From Nostoc sp. CCCryo 231-06 (lineage in GTDB: Bacteria > Cyanobacteriota > Cyanobacteriia > Cyanobacteriales > Nostocaceae), in the NCBI GenBank assembly GCA_023522315.1, contig JAHCSU010000412.1, forward strand, positions 244-64,243: a stretch of DNA of 64,000 nucleotides, given 5' to 3'. Of the stretch, positions 41,781 through 55,115 are shown in pieces. A model generated the notes under the pieces. It searched no databases and was not told where the DNA came from. It worked only from the letters and a program-made list of their open reading frames with translations. Made by a program: the position numbers and the translations under genes. The stretch's first letter is position 1; each line of letters opens with the position of its first letter.

Positions 41781-44700
41781 TCACCGCCACTCACCTTGGA
41801 GGGTGAAAGCCGCCCAATAACGGGGATGTTTCCATTCTGGATTTTTCAAATCGTTTCCTTGAAAATCTTTCCCTTGCCACATTTGGCGTTGAGCGACATT
41901 AAGGGCGGCGGCAGGAGCTTTTTTTTGTTCCAATATTTGTTTGTAAAATCCAATCATTAACTCCTTGGTAGATTGATCGTTCACCTTCCACAGAGACACG
42001 GTGACTCTAGCTGCACCCGCATACATAAAGCCTCTTGTCAAGCCAACCAGCCCTTCACCTTGGACATCATCGCCTAGTCCACTTTCACAGGCACTTAGCA
42101 CTATCAACTCTGCTGGTAAGTCGAGGTTAAAAATATCATTGAGCCGCAGGAAGCCTCTGGTTTGGGGTTTACCTTGTTTATCCACCAGAGACAGCACTAT
42201 ACCTGATAAGGCTGGGTTCACAGGGTCGAAAATACCGTGAGTGGCGAACAGCAGCAGGCGATATTGGCTCAACTGTTTGCTAGTTGCAAAGTTGTAGTTG
42301 GCATCAAAATTAAAGGCGGAAAGTTTTTCACCAGGAGAATTCACCAAGCTAAGAATCGCCTCTCCTTCGTCTTTTGTACCTGGGAGTGGGTCTAATTTGT
42401 CTCGATTGATGTTTCTCAAAGACATTTCTAAAGCTGAACGGTCGAGGTTGTTTTCTACAGTTGAGGGTTTATCATTGTTCAACCGTGCATCATCAACACG
42501 AAACACAGGATTAGCGAGAACAGCTAGGGTTTTGGGTGCAATTTTGCGTCCTTTGAGTTTCTTTCTGTGAGTTGCGAGGCTAGATATTGAAGGGAGGTTG
42601 ACAATTTCATGATTCACAACTAGGGGTTGATATCCTGCGCTGGCTGGCGATTTTCTGGGTTCGTTTAAAGCCGCGAATGGCACTTGATGCAAAATCCCAT
42701 CAGCAACGATAACTAAACGTTTGTTCCCCAACTTCCCAGCTACAGGTGCGAGGATAATTTGACTAAGTGCGTCTGCGGCTTTATCTGTATTTGCAAAAGT
42801 TGGGGCGTTGTCTTCTGGGGTTCCTCCATCAATCAGTTTTTGCGTTAAGAGGCTATTAAATTTCTTTGCAGCTTTCGCTATCTTTTCTTGTCCGGGAAGT
42901 TCGTAGCTTTGTAGAGAATTAGGAGTGGCTACCCACAGATAACTGCGTTCTTCACCCAAGGAATATTGCAACATTACGGTATCTTGATCTAGTTGTTGTT
43001 GAATTTCTGACAATTCCAGTACGTCTTTTGGGTCAATTAATTCTGCACGTTCTGGGTTAGTCGCCCTGATTTTTTCAGAAATTGATTGCGATTCTTGGAT
43101 AATATTTGTAATTTCTTGTTTGGTTTTTGTGATCAGTTCGGTGGGTGGTTCCTTTCGACTGAATAAATCTGATAAAAACTTATCTTTGGCATTCAATCTA
43201 AAATTTAAACGGCGTTCTTCTGCTAATAGTTGCGGATCAACGTCTTTACCGAGATTGACATTACTTTCTTTTAACAGTTCGACTAATACCCTGGCGCGAG
43301 AACGTTCGCTAATGTGCAATGCTAATGCGTTGTATCCTTTTGATGGGTCTTTTTTGTGCAACTGCATCAGCAAGTCAATGTAGAACTTGTAATAATCTTG
43401 CACTGTGGCGAAGTAGAAAGTACGTAAATCATCGCTGTTGACTTTGTTGCGCGTATTCTCAATAATGTTTATGGCTGCTTCTATGTGCGTCTTGGCTTGG
43501 TTGAGATTTCTTCTGTCGCGCTCAATGATGGCAATCTTATAAAGTGGATGAGTTTGTTCGGATGTGTCGCCTATTTGCTGTCCTAGCTTTAATTCTTGGT
43601 TGTAAGCCTCTATCGCCTGCTGCGGCTGCTTCATAGAGATGTAAATCTTACCTCGGATTTTATAGAGGGTGGCTTGTGATGTTAAATCTCCTAGTTGCTG
43701 TGATAGCGACAAACTTTGTTTGCTAGCATCAAGGGCATTTTGATAATCTCCTGCACCTTCATAGGCGGTGCTTAAAAAAGCAAGGGCAGTCCTTTCAGCT
43801 TCTTTGAGATTTTTTTCCCGAGACAGTTCTAAAGCTTGTTTAGCCTTAGCAATAGCTTTGGGATATTCCTTTAATAACTCATAAATCTTGGAAGTAGAAG
43901 TAAGAATATAATTTTTTATCAAGTATCGTTCACCGGCATCCTTTAACGCATCCTCAAAATATTTCAATCCTTGACGGCAATCTTCTGCTTTTTTTTGAGA
44001 AAAGCACTTATCTAGATAAACACTGCCTATGCTAAAAAAACCAGTTACTATTAAACTCGGATTGCTTTGCTGATATATCTTCAAAACTTCCTTATACTTA
44101 TCAATGCTTAAGTCATAGGCTCCTAAATTTTGGTACACATTAGCTATCTCATTGAGAGTCCTTGCTTCTATACTAAGATTTTGCTGTCTTTTAGAAATTT
44201 CTAGTGCTTGGTTAAAGAGTATATCTAGGGCTTGTTGAAATTCTCTTGAATTTGTATGAATAGAGGCAATGCTTACAAGTGTTTCAACTTCTCCTTGAGA
44301 ATCATGAATGTCCCGTTGAAGCTTTAGGGCTTGATTGAGATTTTCAAGAGCTTTTTGTGTCTCACCTAATAGAGAGTACGTATTACCAATACTGGAAATA
44401 AAATTTGCTTCCCGATGGAAATTACCTAGCTGATGAGCGATAGTTCTTGCTTGATTTAAGTAGACAATCCGCTGCTGTATATCACCCAGATATAAGTAGC
44501 CAGTGGCAATTGAAGAGAGAATCCTCATTTGGCTATCAAAAAAATCTCTACGACCAAGTGGATTTTTTGGGTCTTGCTGTATTTGTCTTGCGATTGTCTT
44601 TAGTAACTCTAATCCCTGCTTAAAAGATTTCTCGGCTGAAGAGCGATCGCCTTTGAAACTGTAGACTGAACCTATATCTATAAATGTCTCTGCTTGTCCA

Positions 44701-45674
44701 AATAAATCTTTCGTTTGGCTGTAGATTTTCAGTACTTGCTGATAGGAATCAAGGGCTTTATTTGTTTCACCTAAACCTTGGTAGTTTCCAGCAATAACCC
44801 CAAGCGTCTTTGCTTGCCCTGGTAAATCATCATTTGCCTTTTGAATTGCCAAAGCTCTTTCTAAAAAGTCACGCTCTTTTTTCGGTTCGCCAAATACTTT
44901 ATAAAATACAGCAATGCTAAACAGTACATCAGCCTCTTTTTTGGGTTGTTTGTCAGCATGATATAGTGACTGTGCTTGGTTATAAGCATCAATCGCTTTT
45001 TGCTTTTCCCCTAAATCTCGATAAACAACACCAAGGGATGTTAATATTAAAGCTTTCAATTCACGAGCCTTTGATTCCTGCGATTCCTGCACAATAGCTA
45101 ATGCTTGCTCAAAATATCCCACAGCTTTTGTGTCTTCTCTTAGGGTGATGTAGATAGTACCAATGCTAGAAAGTGTAATAGCCTCGAGAAAAGGTGCTTC
45201 TTGAGGTTTTGCTGCACGCACTTCTGGTAATCTCCAGATTTTCAACGCTTCTTCGTATTTAGTAATTGCCTGTCGTACTGCTGCTGCTGATGGTTGATTC
45301 CGTAGTTGATGTCCTTCTTCTAACAGTTGGTTTGCTTTATCCCAAAGCGGCTTGATTTTAGCCTCGGCTTCACTTGGCGCAGGGTTTGTATTTTGTGGTT
45401 TTGCATCTGGCGACTGCGCTATTTTGACGTTAGCAGAGACTTTTTTCCCTATTTTTTCTGAAAACGAATCTGTATACCCTTGTTCTACCGCAGCATCAAT
45501 TGACTTTTGCGAGTCAGCTTGCATCTGTTGTGTTATCTGCAACCATCTACTTATCGATGTTGCACCTACGGCATCAGACAGAAAAAGCACACTCAGTAAC
45601 ACAGTTAAACTATAACGATAAACCTGAGAAAATGAGCAGCAAAAATTACACTCAAATTTAGCGTTATTCTTCAT
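41781..45674 (-). CDS. TPR-repeat + CHAT (caspase/HetF-like) domain protein
   Basis: Signal-like N-terminus; many TPRs; CHAT motifs LVIVADGILHQVPFAAL, ATHG (His), LSACESG (Cys), GLTRGFMYAGA, WAAFTLQGEW. Confidence 0.92.
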   Translation of the reverse strand: MKNNAKFECNFCCSFSQVYRYSLTVLLSVLFLSDAVGATSISRWLQITQQMQADSQKSIDAAVEQGYTDSFSEKIGKKVSANVKIAQSPDAKPQNTNPAPSEAEAKIKPLWDKANQLLEEGHQLRNQPSAAAVRQAITKYEEALKIWRLPEVRAAKPQEAPFLEAITLSSIGTIYITLREDTKAVGYFEQALAIVQESQESKARELKALILTSLGVVYRDLGEKQKAIDAYNQAQSLYHADKQPKKEADVLFSIAVFYKVFGEPKKERDFLERALAIQKANDDLPGQAKTLGVIAGNYQGLGETNKALDSYQQVLKIYSQTKDLFGQAETFIDIGSVYSFKGDRSSAEKSFKQGLELLKTIARQIQQDPKNPLGRRDFFDSQMRILSSIATGYLYLGDIQQRIVYLNQARTIAHQLGNFHREANFISSIGNTYSLLGETQKALENLNQALKLQRDIHDSQGEVETLVSIASIHTNSREFQQALDILFNQALEISKRQQNLSIEARTLNEIANVYQNLGAYDLSIDKYKEVLKIYQQSNPSLIVTGFFSIGSVYLDKCFSQKKAEDCRQGLKYFEDALKDAGERYLIKNYILTSTSKIYELLKEYPKAIAKAKQALELSREKNLKEAERTALAFLSTAYEGAGDYQNALDASKQSLSLSQQLGDLTSQATLYKIRGKIYISMKQPQQAIEAYNQELKLGQQIGDTSEQTHPLYKIAIIERDRRNLNQAKTHIEAAINIIENTRNKVNSDDLRTFYFATVQDYYKFYIDLLMQLHKKDPSKGYNALALHISERSRARVLVELLKESNVNLGKDVDPQLLAEERRLNFRLNAKDKFLSDLFSRKEPPTELITKTKQEITNIIQESQSISEKIRATNPERAELIDPKDVLELSEIQQQLDQDTVMLQYSLGEERSYLWVATPNSLQSYELPGQEKIAKAAKKFNSLLTQKLIDGGTPEDNAPTFANTDKAADALSQIILAPVAGKLGNKRLVIVADGILHQVPFAALNEPRKSPASAGYQPLVVNHEIVNLPSISSLATHRKKLKGRKIAPKTLAVLANPVFRVDDARLNNDKPSTVENNLDRSALEMSLRNINRDKLDPLPGTKDEGEAILSLVNSPGEKLSAFNFDANYNFATSKQLSQYRLLLFATHGIFDPVNPALSGIVLSLVDKQGKPQTRGFLRLNDIFNLDLPAELIVLSACESGLGDDVQGEGLVGLTRGFMYAGAARVTVSLWKVNDQSTKELMIGFYKQILEQKKAPAAALNVAQRQMWQGKDFQGNDLKNPEWKHPRYWAAFTLQGEWR

Positions 45675-45875
45675 GCTGAAGCCTCAATAACCTTTCAGAT
45701 ATTTGGGTTTAGATATTTATGCTTGAATTCTTTAAGGAATCTTTCTGTGATTCCAATGTTGAGTTTATAACGTTCATTCACCTGAACTAACATTGTTACC
45801 AAAATAGATACAAAATTTTGTCAAATCTTCCAGATTCCTGGTTTTGGCCTTATCTAGCTAGGTTTTATCTAGAAT

Positions 45876-46067
45876 CGTAGGTTGGGTTGAACGAACGCGA
45901 ACAGCGTCCCATAGGGAAGTGAAACCCAACAAACCGAGAAAAAAGTTGGGTTTCGTTCCTCAAACGCCACTTGCTACCCTTCTCCTAATGGAGACGCTGC
46001 GCGAACGGGAACGCCAAGGGCGGGCGAACAAGTCGGTAAACCGCAAGGAGTGGCTCCTCAACCTACG
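45876..46067. repeat. Nested composite repeat element
   Basis: Outer CGTAGGTTGGGTTG...CAACCTACG with several SDR-like inserts. Confidence 0.65.
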
Positions 46068-46114
46068 CAGGTTAAGGTTTTTGGCTGAGGGTCAAGTGAG
46101 TAATACTAAGTAAT

Positions 46115-46774
46115 TTGCTAAACTCTAAATCATCATCAGGAGTAAGTGTGATGTTTCAAGCCTTACCAAAAATAATCACTTTTGAAGAATTCCTCAATTG
46201 GAAACCAGATGGCGGATGCTATGAACTACACGACGGAGCAATTGTTGAAATGCAGCCAGTAGGAGATCATGAAGAGATTAATGGTTTTTTAGCTAAAAAA
46301 CTAAACGTAGAATTTGAACGGCTGAGTCTCCCCTACCTTATACCCAAGCAAGCATTGGTCAAAGTTCCTGACAAAGAGTCTGGTTATTCGCCTGATGTGA
46401 TAGTGATAAATCAAAAGAATCTTTCATCAGAACCGATGTGGAAAAAGTCTTCAACGGTTACTCAAGCTGCGTCGGTTCCCTTAGTTATTGAAGTTGTCAG
46501 CACTAATTGGAAAGATGATTATGCACACAAACTGGTTGACTACGAAACTTTTGGCGTTCCTGAATACTGGATTACTGACTATTTAGCTTTGGGCGGTAGA
46601 AGGTACATAGGTAATCCCAAACAACCTACTATTTCCATTTACTATTTGGTAGATGGTGAGTATCAAGTTAACCTGTTTCGGGGAAATGATCGCATCATAT
46701 CCCCTACATTCCCAGAATTAAACTTGACATCTGAACAGATTTTCCAAGCTGGGCGTTCAGAATATCAATTATGA
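46115..46774 (+). CDS. Uma2 family endonuclease
   Basis: YELHDGAIVEM, YSPDVIV, LVIEVVSTNWKDDY, GVPEYWITDY. True start probably the GTG/ATG near 46148-46151. Confidence 0.85.
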   Translation: MLNSKSSSGVSVMFQALPKIITFEEFLNWKPDGGCYELHDGAIVEMQPVGDHEEINGFLAKKLNVEFERLSLPYLIPKQALVKVPDKESGYSPDVIVINQKNLSSEPMWKKSSTVTQAASVPLVIEVVSTNWKDDYAHKLVDYETFGVPEYWITDYLALGGRRYIGNPKQPTISIYYLVDGEYQVNLFRGNDRIISPTFPELNLTSEQIFQAGRSEYQL

Positions 46775-49095
46775 CCGCAGTGCAGATACTCCCATAGGGC
46801 CACGAGTTACGCCCAATTGATTTTGCAGTTTCAACTCGCGCCAGAGTTGGGAACCTGTAATCTCGCCTTGCAATAATTGACTGTAGCGATGTATTGTTTT
46901 ACTCACTTGTTCTGGTGTTTCATTGACAAACTCGATGCGAAACTGACGTAATCCCAGTTTTATGAGACGCTGTACGGACTCGGCTCCGGTTTGAGCAGTG
47001 CCGTTAAATACAGTATTGCGGCAGCCTACATCTGCTTTGAGGACGTGTTCGCTACCAACGCGATCGCGCAATTTCACTTCCTGCTTTTCACAAGGTCGTC
47101 CACAGTTTGTATAGTCAGTACCCGTTGATAGAAAAGCACAAAAAACACAATGTTCCATGTGAAACATCGGTATATGTTGATGGATTGTTACCTCAAACCA
47201 TTGGGGTGGACAACTGGTTAGCAGGTCTTGTAGTTGGGTAATATTCAGGTCATAGGATGCCGTCAGCCTTTCTAAACCAAAGCGCTGTTGAAAGTAGTCT
47301 GCTGTGAGAGGATTGGCAACATTCAGCGAGAAATCTCCGATACAGCGATCGCTCCTAAAAAATTCTAGTTGATCATAGTTCCGCACTAGATAGCCATCTG
47401 CCTCACAAGCACGCACTTGCTGCAAAATCCAATTTTCTCCAGGTTTAGTAATTCGGGGAGGTGCTACCCAAATAGTAGGGAGTGGGGAGTGGGGACTTGT
47501 ACTGAGCGTTCGCGTAGCGTCTCGTAGAGAAGCCGAAGTAGTGGGGAGTAGGGATTGTTGTCTTTGTTGATGTACTAGCTGTACGGCTTCTCGGTAGGCG
47601 CGGGGGTCTTCAAATTCACAGTACAGCGTTTCAATACCAACTTGAAGGGCGGCTTGGAGTTGCTTGAGGTTTCGTACTAAGACTATGAGTGAAGGAGATG
47701 TGGCTTTAGCTTCCCGCAGGGTGGGAGATAAGGGGGATGAGGAGGGAAGTAAGTTTTGGAAAGAGACATCAGAACGTAATTGCCAACGTTTGGGTTGACT
47801 TCGCAATTCTTCCATCTGCGCGACAATTTCCCGCCGCATCCGGTTCAACTCACTTACGGGTAGCATAATCGCACCACTCAGGTGGTTGGTTAGCTTTCCC
47901 AAACAGAAAGGGGTGTTACCTAAACGACCGAACTGTTCTTGTAAACGGTCTGTATCTAAGGGTTTTGTGTGCGCCTCAACCAGTGAAATTGCAGATTCTA
48001 CTTGGACAATATTACCGAGTTGATCACGAGCGATCGCTATCAATGGCTGACCAACTTCTCCATAAATTTCTATATAAATGGGACGTTGAAATTGTGGGTT
48101 CTCGCCAGCAAAACTCTGCCGCAGTTGCTTATCGAGTTCTGGATCGCTGGTTTTCCAAATGCGATCGCCTATATGCACTCGGCGCAGGTTCAAGTCATTT
48201 CGACCAAAGGTCAGCATTGCTTCTTTACCTTTGGACACCACAGCATAAACCCGGCCGCCTTCTTCCTTCGCTTCTGGATGACCGCAGTCAAATACAATTC
48301 CATCCCCTGGTTTTACAGGCGCTTCCAGTTTGATTGTTATCTGTTCGTTGTGAATGCGGGTGACTTCACCCAGGTAAACGCCGCGTTTTTTACCAAAGCG
48401 GGCGTGAACCAGTTCTTGATTATTAATCCCGCCAAACCAGCCCGTGTAGAGTCCGCGAGAAAATGCCATTTCTAAGTTGTAGTGTTCTTGATCTGATTTA
48501 CCTCTCCCCCAACCCCTCTCCGAAACGGAGAGGGGAGCCTTTATTCCCCCTTCCCTATGAGGGAAGGGGGTTAGGGGGTTAGGTCTTTCCAATTCCGTCA
48601 TCACCCCATCTAGGGCTTGCCGATAAACACGGGTGACATTAGCAACATACTCTGGAGCTTTCAGGCGACCTTCAATCTTGAGACAAGTTACTCCTGATTT
48701 CACCAAATCGGGCAAAACATCTAACCCTGCTAAGTCTTGAGGACTGAGTAAATATTTGCGTTCTTTTAAATTCACAATTTCCCCATCAGCGATTAACTCG
48801 TAGGGCATCCGGCAAGCTTGGGCACATTCGCCTCTGTTGGCAGAACGTCCACCTAAAGCCTCGCTAGTCAAACACTGACCGGAATACGCTACGCACAAAG
48901 CACCGTGAACAAAGACTTCCAAAGGCAGTGAAGCTTCTTGTAAGGCAATCTGCTGCTGTATTTTATTGATTTCCTGAAGAGAACATTCACGCGCCAGCAC
49001 GACTAATTGACAGCCGAGGGATTTGGCAAATTCCACCCCAGCCGCACTGGTGATAGTCATTTGGGTTGAAGCATGAATGGGAAAATCGGGTGAGA
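46769..49095 (-). pseudogene. U32 family (RlhA-like, DUF3656) protein lacking its N-terminus
   Basis: Homology starts abruptly at SPDFPIHASTQMT; retains HGALCVAYSGQC, RGECAQACR, KIEGRLK. The usual N-terminal ELLAPAG segment is not in the window. Confidence 0.7.
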
Positions 49096-49829
49096 ATACT
49101 CTCTACAACCTGCTCAAGAAAATTAACTGTATCACCAACCAGTGATTCGTCGATATACCAGCGATTACCTATGTTGAGGGTAGGATCTATATCTGCTTCA
49201 TGAGCAATTTTATTTCTACGATCCACAATTAAGGTAAGTTGTTGCTTAATATCTTTAGAAGGCTTACTCATTTTAGTAGCAACTTCATCCCACAATTTTT
49301 TATCCGAAATTTGCCTAATTGCATCAGCTATTTTGTCAGGTTGCTGAAAGCTTTGATAACTTAGACGTTCTCGGATCTCGTCTTCTAACCATGAAGTATT
49401 ATTTAATCTGTTCAAAATACTATTTGATATAGCTGGAATTAAACCAGAAATAGTATGAGACTGCTGTAAAAAGTTAGCTCCATAAACCTGCTGTATGTCA
49501 CTCTCTATCCAAGAAGCGATATCTATGGCTATTCTTCTATCCTCACGAGCGCTTCCCAACGAAACTTGAAAACGGGAAAAGGCTGATTGAGTTGTATTAG
49601 CTGAAGATACTGGTTCAGCACGTTGTCCTCGATGAATTTCCAGCATACCCAATGTGACAACCTCATGGATATAATAATCCAAGGCACTAACAGTTAGAAC
49701 TAGGGCAGCTCGTAAAATGTCTGAAAGATCCAGAGCAGCAGTAGCTTGAGCCTTAACGGAAGTATGAAGAGCAATCAGATCCCGAACACGCTGAATACTA
49801 ATGCGAAATTGGTCAAGCACTGACTGCAT
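48987..49829 (-). CDS. HEPN-domain protein (RiboL-PSP-HEPN / MAE_18760-like), C-terminus extended by fusion
   Basis: DILRAALVLTVSALDYYIHE, SFQQPDKIADA, RRNKIAHE (RxxxxH); start ATG 49829 overlaps the ParA-like stop. Confidence 0.75.
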   Translation of the reverse strand: MQSVLDQFRISIQRVRDLIALHTSVKAQATAALDLSDILRAALVLTVSALDYYIHEVVTLGMLEIHRGQRAEPVSSANTTQSAFSRFQVSLGSAREDRRIAIDIASWIESDIQQVYGANFLQQSHTISGLIPAISNSILNRLNNTSWLEDEIRERLSYQSFQQPDKIADAIRQISDKKLWDEVATKMSKPSKDIKQQLTLIVDRRNKIAHEADIDPTLNIGNRWYIDESLVGDTVNFLEQVVESILTRFSHSCFNPNDYHQCGWGGICQIPRLSISRAGA

Positions 49830-50874
49830 AACTGGATGATAGTGCAATAATTTTATCTGCTAAGTCAGAAAAAGTTTTTTGAAATTCCTTTTGTTTTGCT
49901 TGATTATTTTCGCGTACTATACCAGTTTGTCTTAATTGTTCTGTTGTAAGCGCATAAACAGGTGTACTGTGTTCCTGTGATAGAGCAATTAAACTGTTAG
50001 AATTAGAAATCTTTGTCAGAGTCCAACTACCATTCATACCCTGCTCAGTATAGACCTGCTTAGGTAATAACAAATCATTTTTATCTAGAATTGGTACTAG
50101 TTTATCAATGACTGTATCCTCAATTTTTTCTATCCATGTTTGAAATGCTGCTGTTTCTTTACCCCTAATAATTCTATAGTTTTGAACTATGGTTCCTAAA
50201 AATTTCAAGGTAAATTCTGGAAATGGATAAGCAGCTTCCTTTAATATAGGGTTTGCACTTGCCATCTTTGCCCAACTACACCACTTTGATAAAATTCTCG
50301 ACAGAGAATCAATTGCCATCACAGAGAAAAAATCAGCAGTTGTAGGCACTAAAAAAAAGTCACTTGTCATTAGTAAGTTCTGATTTATTGCTCCTAAACT
50401 TGGACTCATATCAATCAGAATATAGTCAGCATTAAATTTATTAGCAGTTTTTTCTAAAAGATCAGAAATAGCACCTGGCAAGTTTTTGAGTGTCTGAATT
50501 GAGCCACTGAGTTCTTGCGCGATACCTAATGTTACTTCGTATTCACCAAAGCCAATATGACCAGGTAATAAAAATAAACCTTCTTGTCCTTCTATCGAAA
50601 TACAATCTACAGCTTCAATAGCTCGTGGCTGTGACTCAAAAGCAGGAGCCAATCCAGTTTTTATATTTGAAACAGTATTATAGATGTTTTCTATTCTCGC
50701 TTCATCTTCTTCTGTTTCCTCTTTTAGAGCCATTCCTGTTAGATTGCATTGAGGATCAGTATCTACAAGGATAACTCTCTTACCCTTTGAAGCAAGCATC
50801 CAACCTAAGTTAAAAGTCGTTGTAGTCTTACTGACACCACCTTTGTGATTGAATAAGGCAATTTTGTGAACCAT
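49813..50874 (-). CDS. ParA/Soj-like (AAA_31, SIMIBI) ATPase
   Basis: FNHKGGVSKTT deviant Walker A, VDTDPQCNLT, LIDMSPSLG, FFSVMAI. Confidence 0.85.
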   Translation of the reverse strand: MVHKIALFNHKGGVSKTTTTFNLGWMLASKGKRVILVDTDPQCNLTGMALKEETEEDEARIENIYNTVSNIKTGLAPAFESQPRAIEAVDCISIEGQEGLFLLPGHIGFGEYEVTLGIAQELSGSIQTLKNLPGAISDLLEKTANKFNADYILIDMSPSLGAINQNLLMTSDFFLVPTTADFFSVMAIDSLSRILSKWCSWAKMASANPILKEAAYPFPEFTLKFLGTIVQNYRIIRGKETAAFQTWIEKIEDTVIDKLVPILDKNDLLLPKQVYTEQGMNGSWTLTKISNSNSLIALSQEHSTPVYALTTEQLRQTGIVRENNQAKQKEFQKTFSDLADKIIALSSSYAVSA

Positions 50875-50990
50875 CTTAGTTTTGCTTTTGATACTTCTAA
50901 TTTTTTTTAATCTAGGTATAATTTTATAACCTGCATGACTTAAATATAGCTTCTAAAAAGTTTACAGAACAGCAAATTATTTAACGCGCT

Positions 50991-51647
50991 TTACCCCAAT
51001 CCCTCAACATTAGCACTTTCGCCTCCCAACTCAACAGACTCAAAGTTTACCTTGTTGTATATATCTTGTAGAGAAATTTCCAAGGGTACGGTTACAAGTG
51101 CGTAGGCGTAGCCCATCGAAGATATCGCTTCATCTTCTTCATCATATTCACGAAGCGTCCATTGCTTTTTCCCGGTTTTGGAAAATTGATCTACATGAAT
51201 CCGTGTTTGGTCAATTAATAGATATTCTTGAAAAGTAGAAATACTTCGGTAAGCCTGAAATTTATCTTCGTTATCGTAGCCTTTTGTCGATTTTGATAAA
51301 ACCTCAACAATGATTTGTGGGTTCAGAATTATATCCCTCCGGTTGTTGAAATACTCCGGTTCACCTGCCAGAATCATCACATCTGGATAAGTGTAGGTAC
51401 GCTTTTGGGGTATCCATAGACGAACATCACCCATGAAAACCCGGTAGTTCTGCTTTTTAAAAGCAAAATTCAACTCAGTACTTAAGTTAAGTGCTATTTG
51501 ATTGTGATTTATAGTCCCACCCGCCATAGGAATTATTTGCCCGTCAATATATTCACTTTTGTAGTCAGCAGCTTCTTCTAGCTCTAAATATTCCTCTGGA
51601 GTATAGTATCGCTTTTGTGTGATTTGCATAGTTTTATCCGGTAACAA
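50991..51647 (-). CDS. Uma2 family endonuclease with a 7-aa SDR5 insert
   Basis: KSEYIDGQIIPMAGG, YTYPDVMI, IIVEVLSKST, QEYLLIDQ. Confidence 0.88.
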   Translation of the reverse strand: MLPDKTMQITQKRYYTPEEYLELEEAADYKSEYIDGQIIPMAGGTINHNQIALNLSTELNFAFKKQNYRVFMGDVRLWIPQKRTYTYPDVMILAGEPEYFNNRRDIILNPQIIVEVLSKSTKGYDNEDKFQAYRSISTFQEYLLIDQTRIHVDQFSKTGKKQWTLREYDEEDEAISSMGYAYALVTVPLEISLQDIYNKVNFESVELGGESANVEGLG

Positions 51648-51798
51648 TGTTTAACGATACGGAGCGTCTAGCCACTAAAGATATTTTATCCATGTTGACC
51701 GAACCTGTTAACAGGTTAGATAGAGGTTTATGTGCTTTCTACAAAGTGAGCGTAGGCGCAGCCCGCCGTAGGCATCGCTATCTCAATTCACAAAGATC

Positions 51799-53630
51799 CT
51801 ATTGATAACCGGCTGCTTGCAACAAAAACAATTTGGCATAACGTCCTCCTAGCTGTAACAGTTCTTCGTGAGTTCCCTGTTCTATAACTTCCCCGTTTTC
51901 TATAACTAGGATTTTGTCAGCCATTCGTACCGTTGAGAAGCGATGGGAAATCAAAAGTACCATCTGATTTTGAGTAATAGCGCGAAAATGATTGAAAATC
52001 TCAAACTCAGCTTGAGCATCTATTGCTGATGTTGGTTCATCTAACACCAAGATATCTGCTTGCGATCGCATAAAAGCACGAGACAGCGCAATTTTCTGCC
52101 ACTGTCCGCCAGAAAGTTCCTGTCCTCCCTTAAACCAACGACCAAGCTGAGTCTGGAAGCTTTGGGGTAATTGGTCAATAAAAGATTGCGCCATCCCTTT
52201 TTCAGCAGCAGTTTGCCAACGGTTTTTGTTTTCGAGATGTTCTACATCACCGACGCCAATATTTTCACCTACAGTGAATTGGTAGCGGACAAAGTTCTGA
52301 AAAATCACACCAATCCGACGCCGCAATACATCCACATCCCATTCTTGCAAATCCAAGCCATCTAAAAAAATTCGCCCAGAGTCAGGGGTGTAGAGTCGGG
52401 TAAGTAGTTTGATTAAGGTAGTCTTACCGGAACCGTTTTCACCGACAATTGCTAGTTTCTCTCTGGGTTTCAAGTGCAGCGAAATGTTTGTCAACGCTGG
52501 TTTGGAACTTCCTGGATAAGTAAATGATACGTTCTCAAAACGGATGCCATCTTGAGGATTTAAACCAATAGTTGCTTTACCCCAAGATGTTGGTACTTCC
52601 TCTTCCAGGAAATCGTAGAGATTTGATAAATATAGGTTGTCCTCATACATCCCTCCAATAGAAGTAAGGGCATTTGAGAAAGTAGACTGTCCTTGGCGAA
52701 ACACAGTGAGATACATTGTCATATCTCCCAAGGAAATCTTACCTAGCACTGTTTCCAGTACAATCCAAGCATAAGCTAGGTAAAAAGCACCAGTACTAAC
52801 TAAACCCAGGAGATACCCCCACAGTCCTCGCCGCAGAGTTAAATCGCGGTCTTCGCCATAGAGTTGATGAAACAGGCTGCGGTAACGCCCTAGCAGCATC
52901 TCTCCCAGTTGGTAGAGTTTAACCTCTGTGACAAAATCTTCTCTTGCTAGCAGATTTTCTAAGTAGTGCTGTTGACGAGTTTCTGCCGCCCGCCAACTAA
53001 ACAAGCGAAAGCCTTCTCCAGCAAACTTTGTTTCGGAAATAAATACAGGCATAGCTGCCAAAATCAGCACCACCACCGCCCAACCTGAGAAATTTACTAA
53101 CAAAATACCGTATGTGAAAAGGGAAAGAGCATTTTGCACTAACCCAAAGGTGCGGTTTACTAAGGAAAGGGGACGAACTGATGCTTCTCGTCGGGCATTG
53201 GTCAATTTGTCATAAAATTCTGAGTCTTCAAACTGCCTAAGATCAAGTGTCAGCGCCTTTTCTAAGATGAGTACATTCACTCGCTGACCCATTAGCGCCC
53301 GCAATAACGACTGACAAATGGTGATTCCTCGCTGACTGCCTGCTAGTAAAATTACAGCGATCGCTTCTAATCCTACATAAAATAGCGAGGGATAAATATT
53401 GACAAAACCATTGTTTTGTGAGTTAACTTGAGATGCTAATACCACTGCATCCACAATTAACTTACTGATGTAGGATATCGCCGCCGGTAAAAGACCAGCA
53501 ACTATTGTTAAACTAGCCAGAAGAATAGTAAGCGATCGGCTAGTAGTCCATACTAGGCTTACAGCCCGTCCACTGTAGCGGAAAACCGTCAGTGATTGGC
53601 GCAGGATATTTCTTTTTTTTTAATTTTCAT
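51799..53630 (-). CDS. ABC exporter, fused permease/ATP-binding protein; 5' end interrupted (TAA / A9 tract)
   Basis: GENGSGKTT, LSGGQWQ, LVLDEPT, SHRFS. The frame stays open upstream of the track start (53454) up to a TAA at 53620-53622. Confidence 0.8.
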
Positions 53631-53984
53631 CTTTCTTGCCGCGAGATACCCCAGCTTGGGCGGATCTTCCTGACTCTATTAAATCTTTATTAATTTTACA
53701 TTTTTCTAAGAATGTTCGCTGAAAACCCCGAAGTTAAAACCTAAAAACTTTTTGGGGTTTTTATGTTTCGGGGTGGTCATACCATTTCAGGAAATAATTG
53801 AATTGATAAGCTAAACCACATCTAGTTTGCATATCTAAAATTTTTATAACCCATGTGGGGTGGGTATCTTGCCCGCTCTAATCATGCAATTTAAATGTGG
53901 AACAAATTATAAATCACTTTTTTTGCCTCCCCTGCTTCCCCTGCTTCCCCTGCCTCCCCTGCTCCCTGCCCCCTTGCCTCCTCC

Positions 53985-55115
53985 TCAACCCCACAATCTC
54001 CTACCTGCTTTGCCACTTAATTTTTGGTGAGTATCTTCCAACAAAGCTGGAATATCTAACTTTTCTGGACACCGAGGCAAACAGTCACCGCATTCTGTAC
54101 AACGGTTGCCTTTCATTCCAGGGAACCAATGACCGGCATTTTCAAACATTCCGTAACGATATTGCCCATAGTCAGTCATATCGTATGCCACTGCAAGATT
54201 TCGTAACCGCAACACCTCTGGAATATTAATATTTGCTGGACAGGGCAAACAAGCATAACATTGGCTACACTTATCAGTTTCTAAAGCAACTTTTTGGTGA
54301 TTTTCTAACCGTTTAAAAGCAGAATTTTCGGCTGATGTTAACTCTCCATCATCGTCAGCGATTCGCAAAGGTTCCCTTAATTCATCTGGGTTTGCTGGGC
54401 CGATACTCAAAGTAGTAATACGGGTATCAGAAAGCAAGAAGCGATAGTTTAAGTCTAAGGGTAAATACGGTGAGCAGAGGTCTTTTAGAGTTTGGGGTGG
54501 TGTATAGAGGCGTCCCCCCTTATCAGCAGGGGAAATAATGAAAATACCCATGTCTTTTTCGGCAGCTAGTTGAATTGCTGGTGCGTGCCGTTGAAAAAAA
54601 TAGTAATAATGCAGATTGACAAATTCAAAAAAATCTGTATTGATTGCAGCCTGAATTACCTCTAATGGGCCGTGGGTGGAAAAACCAACGTGTCGGACTC
54701 GACCATCAGCAACAGCTTCCTCTACGGCTTGCATACAGCCATTTTTGGCTTGCACCCTCTCTAAATGTTGCCAAGTGTTCAAGCCATGAACTCCCAAGCA
54801 ATCCAAATAATCTAGCTGTAATCGTTCTAGAGATTCGTCGATGCAGCGACGCATGGTGTCAGCATCTGCTGTGGCTGAGATTTTAGTAGTGACATAAAGC
54901 CTCGTTCGGGGTACTGACAACCCAGCTTTTAGCGCCCTACCAAGATACTCCTCACTTTTGCCGTAACCTCTGGCGGTTTCTAGATGATTAATTCCTAGCG
55001 CTAAGGCTTGTTCGATAGTCTGGTGGGCATTTTCAAAATCAGCCAAACAGCGCATTGTTCCCAGAGAAAAAACCGAGAGGCGCAGATTCGTTTTCCCAAA
55101 GCGTCGGTATTGCAT
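53985..55115 (-). CDS. Aldo/keto reductase with C-terminal 4Fe-4S dicluster
   Basis: LGTMR, ETARGYG, GFSTHG, CSQCYACLPCP and CTECGDCLPRCP. Confidence 0.9.
   Translation of the reverse strand: MQYRRFGKTNLRLSVFSLGTMRCLADFENAHQTIEQALALGINHLETARGYGKSEEYLGRALKAGLSVPRTRLYVTTKISATADADTMRRCIDESLERLQLDYLDCLGVHGLNTWQHLERVQAKNGCMQAVEEAVADGRVRHVGFSTHGPLEVIQAAINTDFFEFVNLHYYYFFQRHAPAIQLAAEKDMGIFIISPADKGGRLYTPPQTLKDLCSPYLPLDLNYRFLLSDTRITTLSIGPANPDELREPLRIADDDGELTSAENSAFKRLENHQKVALETDKCSQCYACLPCPANINIPEVLRLRNLAVAYDMTDYGQYRYGMFENAGHWFPGMKGNRCTECGDCLPRCPEKLDIPALLEDTHQKLSGKAGRRLWG

Follow-up and report, generated by a model that had tools for sequence, protein, structure and literature searches.

The 64,000-nucleotide stretch of the Nostoc sp. 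CCCryo 231-06 genome analyzed here (positions 244 to 64,243 of contig JAHCSU010000412.1, assembly GCA_023522315.1; hereafter, the window) contains, on the minus strand, a pair of overlapping genes that encode an intact ParA/Soj-like P-loop ATPase of 353 amino acids (positions 49813-50874) and, downstream of it, a predicted RNase of the HEPN fold (an open reading frame of 280 amino acids, from the ATG at 49829 to the stop codon at 48987-48989). Across the genomes compared, the HEPN gene is strictly co-conserved with the upstream ATPase gene, that is, the pair is obligate. On balance, and with modest confidence, we favor the interpretation that this locus is a resident copy of a widespread ParA-HEPN conflict module in which ParA would keep the RNase inactive until triggered. 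Every step of this mechanism beyond the domain identity of the two proteins and the co-conservation of their genes is inferred.

The ParA-HEPN gene pair

The distribution of the pair was assessed in a sample of 401 cyanobacterial genomes. The HEPN gene was detected in 35 of these, in every case with an orthologue of the ATPase gene directly upstream (35/35); carriers make up 4 of the 8 genomes sampled from the genus and 15 of the 45 from the family, and are absent from the 225 genomes counted jointly for twelve families. When 1.84 billion cluster representatives were searched with a profile, 1,581 HEPN relatives were retrieved at E <= 0.001, nearly all of about 200 amino acids, and the 249-amino-acid long form found in cyanobacteria constitutes essentially one cluster at 50% identity. 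In each of three distant representatives of the roughly 200-amino-acid form, a ParA gene with the FNHKGGVSKTT motif is located immediately upstream of the HEPN gene. HEPN relatives at 26-28% identity likewise neighbor an ATPase gene, both on conjugative plasmids of Burkholderia glumae and in a filamentous prophage of the Pf type. The coupling of a single enzymatic effector gene to ParA is accordingly seen in the 35 genomes as well as in distant relatives, plasmids and a prophage, which bears out the two-gene system suggested in an initial annotation of the window. In the Pf-type Pseudomonas prophage record AY324828 (L032:2055-3510), the pair is present and half-annotated: Orf317 ('similar to Soj') precedes a HEPN open reading frame that lacks annotation (26% identity, E 3e-15). 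A search of a phage collection with the HEPN protein matched only two Pseudomonas filamentous phages.

The ParA stop codon and the HEPN start codon lie within a 17-nucleotide overlap (49813-49829, minus strand) indicative of translational coupling, and the overlap and coordinates given in the initial annotation agree with our reading of the open reading frames. Because most of the orthologous loci examined share this overlap, the HEPN start at ATG 49829 is well supported; a TTG at 49847, considered as an alternative start, is merely the longest extension of the open reading frame.

The ATPase matches the Pfam families AAA_31 (E 3.8e-31) and CbiA (E 4e-15), and its AlphaFold2 (AF2) model, with a mean predicted local distance difference test (pLDDT) value of 87.6 and a predicted template modeling score of 0.90, has DIP2308, Soj, ParA and McdA as the best Foldseek matches (E 4e-13 to 1e-10). 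The protein contains the deviant Walker A motif within FNHKGGVSKTT, the sensor DxD followed by a glutamine in DTDPQ (DTD at residues 38-40) and the Walker B motif DYILID (residues 150-155), so that the DhhhhD Walker B pattern, the sensor DxD and the ParA fold characteristic of ParA/MinD (SIMIBI) ATPases are all present. Among the NCBIfam models, the protein scores far below every cut-off for equivalogs and partition proteins. No obvious ParB was found among the open reading frames listed for positions 45000-55000, where neither a ParB profile search nor a parS search was made, and the same holds, with the same limit, for the annotated genes of the syntenic Nostoc commune locus. Compared with the core, where the mean match to the window residue is 0.8-0.9, the C-terminal half of the ATPase is more variable (0.53-0.69).

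The deviant Walker A motif of ParA/MinD proteins is written KGGxGK[ST] in a bioRxiv preprint of October 2026 (Li, Burroughs, Aravind, 10.64898/2026.10.19.760177), whereas the window protein carries KGGVSKTT (residues 11-18; codons at 50821-50844, minus strand, read directly), with both lysines retained and the glycine before the second lysine replaced by serine throughout the clade. The same motif is found in most orthologues, in partner ATPases at 37-56% identity and in ParA proteins of P22-like phages. Since the ParA proteins of distant representatives and of P22-like phages carry FNHKGGVSKTT, the serine is, from these alignments, a clade signature, neither a private mutation nor a sign of decay; the motif pointed out in the initial annotation is present, and its serine is the norm of the clade and not a defect. 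We found no mention of this serine in the main text of the preprint. In the window copy, the conserved phenylalanine of the ParA SNFNS motif is a serine. In three orthologues, the Walker A motif is altered to KGGVGSTT (L017:4354-5412), EAGLGKTA (L023:5790-6836) or KAGVIKTT (L007:6947-8014), in each case beside an apparently intact HEPN gene. Salmonella phage ST160 (L034:2468-3574), and phage SE1 as well, encode a solo ParA of 368 amino acids, 36% identical to the window protein and with the FNHKGGVSKTT motif, between the c2 repressor gene and gene 24, a classic slot for morons and defense genes, with no HEPN gene after it.

The downstream protein matches PF18735 (HEPN_RiboL-PSP) over residues 13-245 with a score of 44.2 bits (cut-off, 28.4; E 2.6e-11), and its homologues are assigned to the same family, which identifies it as a predicted RNase of the RiboL-PSP type. 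The match to PF18737 (the MAE_28990/MAE_18760 model) spans residues 133-211 only and, with a score of 20.0 bits (cut-off, 26.8; E 8.6e-4), remains below the threshold; the two models evidently overlap, given that a few homologues carry both. The HEPN motif of the catalytic type, RRNKIAHE, is located at residues 204-211 (49197-49220, minus strand, read directly), with R205 and H210 forming R-x4-H, and R204, R205, N206, H210 and E211 are invariant among 23 homologues, so that the RNKIAH motif reported initially is indeed intact. The native part of the protein (residues 1-245; 49095-49829, minus strand) is 78-97% identical to the 249-amino-acid cyanobacterial homologues.

The AF2 model of the HEPN protein is all-helical, with a mean pLDDT of 75.9. 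An exhaustive structural comparison with VIA-align returned HEPN proteins for almost all of its 11 best matches, with Z scores of 8.0-9.7 (8.4-9.7 for the highest-ranking ones) over about 115-137 aligned residues, in a range (Z below about 13) that is common for helical bundles and so not decisive. A Foldseek search of the Protein Data Bank (PDB) with the model gave no match at E <= 0.001, a sequence-profile search of the PDB yielded nothing below E 0.38, and NCBIfam gave no HEPN model. Relative to the short form, the long-form HEPN proteins contain an 8-residue insert and another of about 36-45 residues, both placed after the N-terminal helices and ahead of the catalytic half. The internal repeat proposed in the initial annotation (ASWIESDIQ/TSWLEDEIR) was rejected: BLASTP of residues 92-142 against residues 143-200 produced no alignment at E <= 100, and the first copy falls in the insert of about 45 residues that is peculiar to the long form.

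Synteny, selection and the clipped HEPN allele

The gene order ABC transporter-Uma2-ParA-HEPN-U32 recurs in several genera of Nostocaceae, and the flanks are wholly different in other cyanobacterial orders. Both genes of the pair are subject to strong purifying selection, with ratios of nonsynonymous to synonymous substitution rates (dN/dS) in the range of 0.05 to 0.27 (about 0.05 to 0.2 in the long-form clade); synonymous divergence is 0.13 to 0.6 within the genus and saturated between orders. Judging by these comparisons, the module in Nostocaceae is an old, conserved resident and not a recent import. The horizontal acquisition proposed initially, taken as a recent arrival, is contradicted by the synteny across Nostocaceae genera and the saturation of synonymous sites between orders. 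The AT-richness noted in support of it is real, although moderate: the GC content is 35.0% for the ParA gene and 38.9% for the native part of the HEPN gene, compared with 42.2% for the window. With 43 HIP1 sites in the window, about 1 per 1.5 kb, some 1.3 would be expected in the 1.9 kb of the pair, so that their lack in the pair is not beyond chance. The absence of HIP1 sites together with the GC content was therefore discarded as a sign of recent transfer, being too weak and at odds with the synteny.

The allele in the window differs from its orthologues at the 3' end. Homology to every HEPN orthologue stops at position 49094 and homology to the U32 peptidase gene starts at 49093, the deletion junction (49093/49094) being defined by collinearity in blastn alignments. 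The last four native residues (HQIL), including a nearly invariant histidine, are replaced by a foreign tail of 35 residues plus a stop codon (48987-49094, minus strand) that is read out of frame from U32 sequence, as indicated by the alignment and the junction sequences. This confirms the fused C-terminus noticed initially. In the AF2 model, the tail is disordered (pLDDT 31-44 over residues 253-280) and the last HEPN helix is continuous to residue 253. A Logan contig from a run that may derive from the source sample matches the window exactly over 48600-49631, across the junction; the contigs of relatives break at 49090/49094.

Relative to a genome of the same genus (L011), 517 bp are missing at the junction; the corresponding values for three other genomes are 524, 435 and 1,088 bp, and the junction shows a microhomology of 1-2 bp. 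Compared with Nostoc commune NIES-4072 (L001), 1,976 bp are missing, and the spacer of N. commune holds hicAB and a tacA-like gene pair; a 1,976-bp deletion with loss of hicAB and the tacA-like pair was considered and dropped after more genomes were compared. Because the simplest ancestral state is HEPN followed directly by U32, the loss of 517 bp is favored, and a loss of toxin-antitoxin (TA) genes at this locus is not shown. The alignments indicate that a deletion of at least 517 bp in this genome clipped the 3' end of the HEPN gene and removed the 5' end of the U32 gene. In N. commune NIES-4072, the HEPN-U32 spacer (L001:10866-12144) encodes hicB-hicA and a TacA1-like gene with a partner of 173 amino acids. 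Given that N. commune has TA genes in this position and that in other Nostocaceae HEPN is directly followed by U32, the spacer appears to be a small hotspot for TA cassettes.

In the same deletion, the 5'-truncated U32 gene (U32/DUF3656; 46769-49093, minus strand) was deprived of its upstream region and of about 93-118 N-terminal codons; the longest remaining open reading frame is 763 amino acids, from ATG 49060. An 874-amino-acid U32 query has no other match in the 7.08-Mb assembly. If U32 is still expressed, it would need both the internal ATG at 49060 and transcripts that read through from the ParA-HEPN operon. In the RNA-run contigs of a relative, the pair has a depth of about 4 compared with about 130 for U32, too low to prove transcription. 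A promoter and terminator scan of 48700-51800 found fewer sites than in shuffled sequences and was uninformative.

With respect to the activity of the clipped RNase, we see the chances that it still works as about evenly balanced. That the window copy is a non-functional relic, with an inactive HEPN protein and the ATPase perhaps used alone, is nearly an even prospect as well, and would be compatible with any reading of the family. The loss of the last four residues with the nearly invariant histidine, the addition of the disordered tail, the serine in place of the conserved phenylalanine of the ParA SNFNS motif and parallel HEPN losses in other genomes all point in this direction. However, the four-helix core is complete, as is the R-x4-H helix, the reading frame is free of internal stop codons and frameshifts, and the last helix is modeled as continuous to residue 253. 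Among the 34 other carrier genomes, the HEPN gene is truncated, split or deleted in 6-7, and the ParA gene is broken in one; these genomes are related, so that the decay counts are not independent. Such asymmetric decay, with HEPN affected more than ParA, is what a costly toxin would show.

On its other side, the pair is flanked by a Uma2 gene (PF05685; 50991-51647, from the open reading frame listing), so that both flanks are as originally described, namely a Uma2 gene and a broken housekeeping gene (46769-49060). Uma2 (PADLOC candidate PDC-S03) has 102 matches in the genome, including four on the contig of the window, two of which are 46115-46774 and 50991-51647; with so many copies, the neighboring Uma2 gene means little, and Uma2 was rejected as a partner of the pair. 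In a Pfam and PADLOC scan of the 88 nearest neighbors, two per side, of 23 loci, Uma2 is the commonest match (9/88), and housekeeping genes predominate among the neighbors, interspersed with a few TA and restriction-modification genes. In a distant metagenomic relative (L028:2141-3792), the pair directly follows genes for a methyltransferase and an Mrr_cat restriction endonuclease, one of the few clear contexts of the defense type. Elsewhere in the window, an open reading frame of 1,297 amino acids (41781-45674, minus strand) encodes many TPR-like repeats and a C-terminal region.

Relation to previously described systems

The pair fits two described classes, both of them computational only: the ParA/Soj-HEPN dyad of 2013 and the 'ParA-effector systems' of 2026. 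In the former, an ATPase and a HEPN RNase were predicted to comprise a TA system in which the ATPase neutralizes the RNase through a nucleotide-dependent change (Anantharaman, Makarova, Burroughs, Koonin, Aravind 2013, PMC3710099). The arrangement, with the ATPase gene upstream and an Rx4-6H HEPN gene downstream, is the same as in the window. However, the dyad was described for the MAE_18760 family, whereas the window protein passes the threshold for PF18735 only and not that for PF18737; in the table of that study, RiboL-PSP is linked to L-PSP fusions and ParB operons, and not to ParA (PMC3710099). The 'ParA-effector systems' consist of ParA and a single variable gene for an enzymatic effector, with HEPN listed among the effectors, and are reported to be enriched in multicellular prokaryotes (10.64898/2026.10.19.760177). 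The window ATPase resembles the ConB1 type of these systems in the asparagine and valine of FNHKGGVSKTT, the glutamine of DTDPQ and the single effector gene, and differs in that the 'rapidly evolving C-terminal extension' reported there is not seen in the window clade.

The nearest tested system is RemAIN of the Salmonella prophage Gifsy-1, a validated anti-phage defense system that comprises the RemA ATPase, the RemI immunity protein and the HEPN anticodon nuclease RemN. In both cases, an ATPase works, or is proposed to work, as a unit with a HEPN RNase; RemAIN, however, has a third gene, for a distinct immunity/HeH component, and belongs to a different sub-branch of ParA. The homology considered here is at the superfamily level. 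A Salmonella system cited in the 2026 preprint, which we take to be RemAIN, is classed there as ParA-HeH with a HEPN effector (10.64898/2026.10.19.760177). In the MNT-HEPN system (MntA-HepT), an upstream enzyme neutralizes the downstream HEPN RNase, as we propose for the window pair, and solved HepT structures are among the best matches to the window HEPN model, with Z scores of 8.6-9.1. MntA, however, is a minimal nucleotidyltransferase and modifies the toxin by AMPylation, whereas the partner here is a SIMIBI P-loop ATPase, and the window HEPN protein is longer by about 80 residues, located between the N- and C-terminal helices. With ParABS and MinDE, the pair shares the ATPase fold and motifs and a predicted contact of HEPN at the ParB/MinE-binding surface; the differences are the HEPN partner, the serine in place of glycine in Walker A and the patchy distribution.

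In PADLOC-DB 2.0.0, the HEPN protein has no match and the ATPase matches PDC-M28B over the P-loop region only (residues 3-57). The suggestion, raised with the initial annotation, that the pair might already be a named system is borne out to the extent that it fits a described computational class, and fails in that no PADLOC system component is matched. The statement that ParA-HEPN pairs lack experimental characterization stands: our literature searches found none for any member. The contributions of the present analysis are the clipped allele, the picture of synteny and selection, the long-form insert and a weak prediction of the interface.

Proposed mechanism and competing explanations

We modeled the complex of the window ParA with the native-length HEPN protein of N. 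commune (96% identical to that of the window) using ESMFold2. The pair scored 0.56, compared with 0.00 for the best of 3 controls, a result classed as 'weak support': of 78 solved complexes, 51 attain the mark for a complex, as do 2 of 108 mismatched pairs, and scores of 0.60 or below include only 5 of the 78 solved complexes, yet all 4 passing mismatches (of 180). The modeled interface involves residues 193-234 of the HEPN protein, including R204, K207 and E211, and residues 77-85, 114-118 and 128-131 of ParA, which, in the AF2 model, correspond to the beta2-beta3 insert and the helices after beta3. This surface of ParA is described as the ParB/MinE-binding one (10.64898/2026.10.19.760177), and the R-x4-H helix is modeled against it. 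Together with the published proposals and the precedent of RemAIN, this leads us to favor a latch.

Under this scenario, ParA would bind the R-x4-H face of the HEPN protein via its classical ParB/MinE-binding surface, and the bound HEPN protein would be kept from forming the RNase active site. A change in the ATP- or DNA-bound state of ParA, for which invading DNA, a phage protein or nucleotide depletion are candidate triggers, would then free the RNase, which would cut an essential RNA, with tRNA or mRNA as the likely targets, and the ensuing arrest of the cell would follow the logic of TA or abortive infection systems.

Several observations weigh against this interpretation. The existence of orthologues with a changed Walker A motif beside an intact HEPN gene suggests that ATP turnover may be dispensable, considering that these changes should cripple ATP binding. 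Sequence conservation is very strong, unlike that of a typical arms-race gene, and the neighborhood scan gave mostly housekeeping genes, which does not support the defense-island association for which a check had been suggested in the initial annotation. The PADLOC comparison, suggested in the same place, yielded nothing for HEPN and only a P-loop-level match for the ATPase; the literature holds no experimental characterization that we could find; the predicted complex is only weak; and the window HEPN protein lacks the nearly invariant C-terminal histidine and carries the disordered tail of 35 residues.

An alternative, which we consider unlikely although worth weighing, is that ParA is the primary effector, coating or sequestering phage or plasmid DNA via its C-terminal helices, and HEPN is a backup should containment fail, as in the model of Li, Burroughs and Aravind for 'ParA-effector systems' (10.64898/2026.10.19.760177). 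The ATPase has the PriB1/ConB1 marks (the asparagine before Walker A, the valine inside it and DTDPQ), ParA persists where HEPN has decayed, and P22-like phages carry a solo ParA of the KGGVSKTT type, with no HEPN gene, in their immunity region between c2 and gene 24, which suggests that this clade can act without an RNase. However, the variability of the C-terminal half exceeds that of the core only modestly (0.53-0.69 vs 0.8-0.9) and, with an overall dN/dS of 0.05-0.27, this half is not 'rapidly evolving', orthologues with a degenerate Walker A exist, and the predicted contact at the face of the RNase active site would, weakly, suit direct inhibition.

Somewhat less probable still is a purely selfish addiction (toxin-antitoxin) module, in which ParA would be a stoichiometric or ATP-dependent antitoxin and which would survive on mobile elements through post-segregational killing, and in chromosomes as a relic. 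Such a role is consistent with the 2013 proposal (PMC3710099), carriage on conjugative plasmids and a filamentous prophage, the patchy distribution (35/401 genomes), the frequent decay on the toxin side and the TA genes (HicAB, the TacA-like gene, DUF4926) that are often neighbors. Nevertheless, a highly conserved ATPase of 353 amino acids would be a costly antitoxin, addiction alone does not explain why the pair has been inherited vertically for so long at a single chromosomal position while under purifying selection, and the related RemAIN is a bona fide defense system.

More speculatively, and in our view improbably, the long-form clade of filamentous cyanobacteria, with its insert of about 45 residues, its near-confinement to one 50%-identity cluster, its saturated synonymous sites and its low dN/dS, might differ from an ordinary arms-race defense gene and be a domesticated switch in which HEPN replaces ParB or MinE on ParA and the ATP- and nucleoid-bound state of ParA times RNA cutting, for instance, in regulated cell death or dormancy in filaments; the serine in place of glycine would then make ParA a slow latch rather than an oscillator. 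A housekeeping role of the long-form clade, as a domesticated RNA-processing enzyme positioned by ParA, could account for dN/dS of 0.05-0.2, the saturation of synonymous sites between orders and the confinement of the long form to essentially one 50%-identity cluster, yet is very unlikely given that the pair was detected in no more than 4 of the 8 genomes sampled from the genus and 15 of the 45 from the family, and given the repeated pseudogenization and the relatives borne by mobile genetic elements.

The 1,581 cluster representatives detected place ParA-HEPN pairs among the more widespread of the two-gene conflict modules on which our searches turned up no bench data. The window allele is a natural variant with a replaced RNase tail that would be useful beside the native 249-amino-acid copies, and testing the pair would show whether a partition-type ATPase can latch an RNase toxin. 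For the Nostocaceae, the comparisons described here portray the module as an old, conserved resident of the chromosome rather than fresh foreign DNA.

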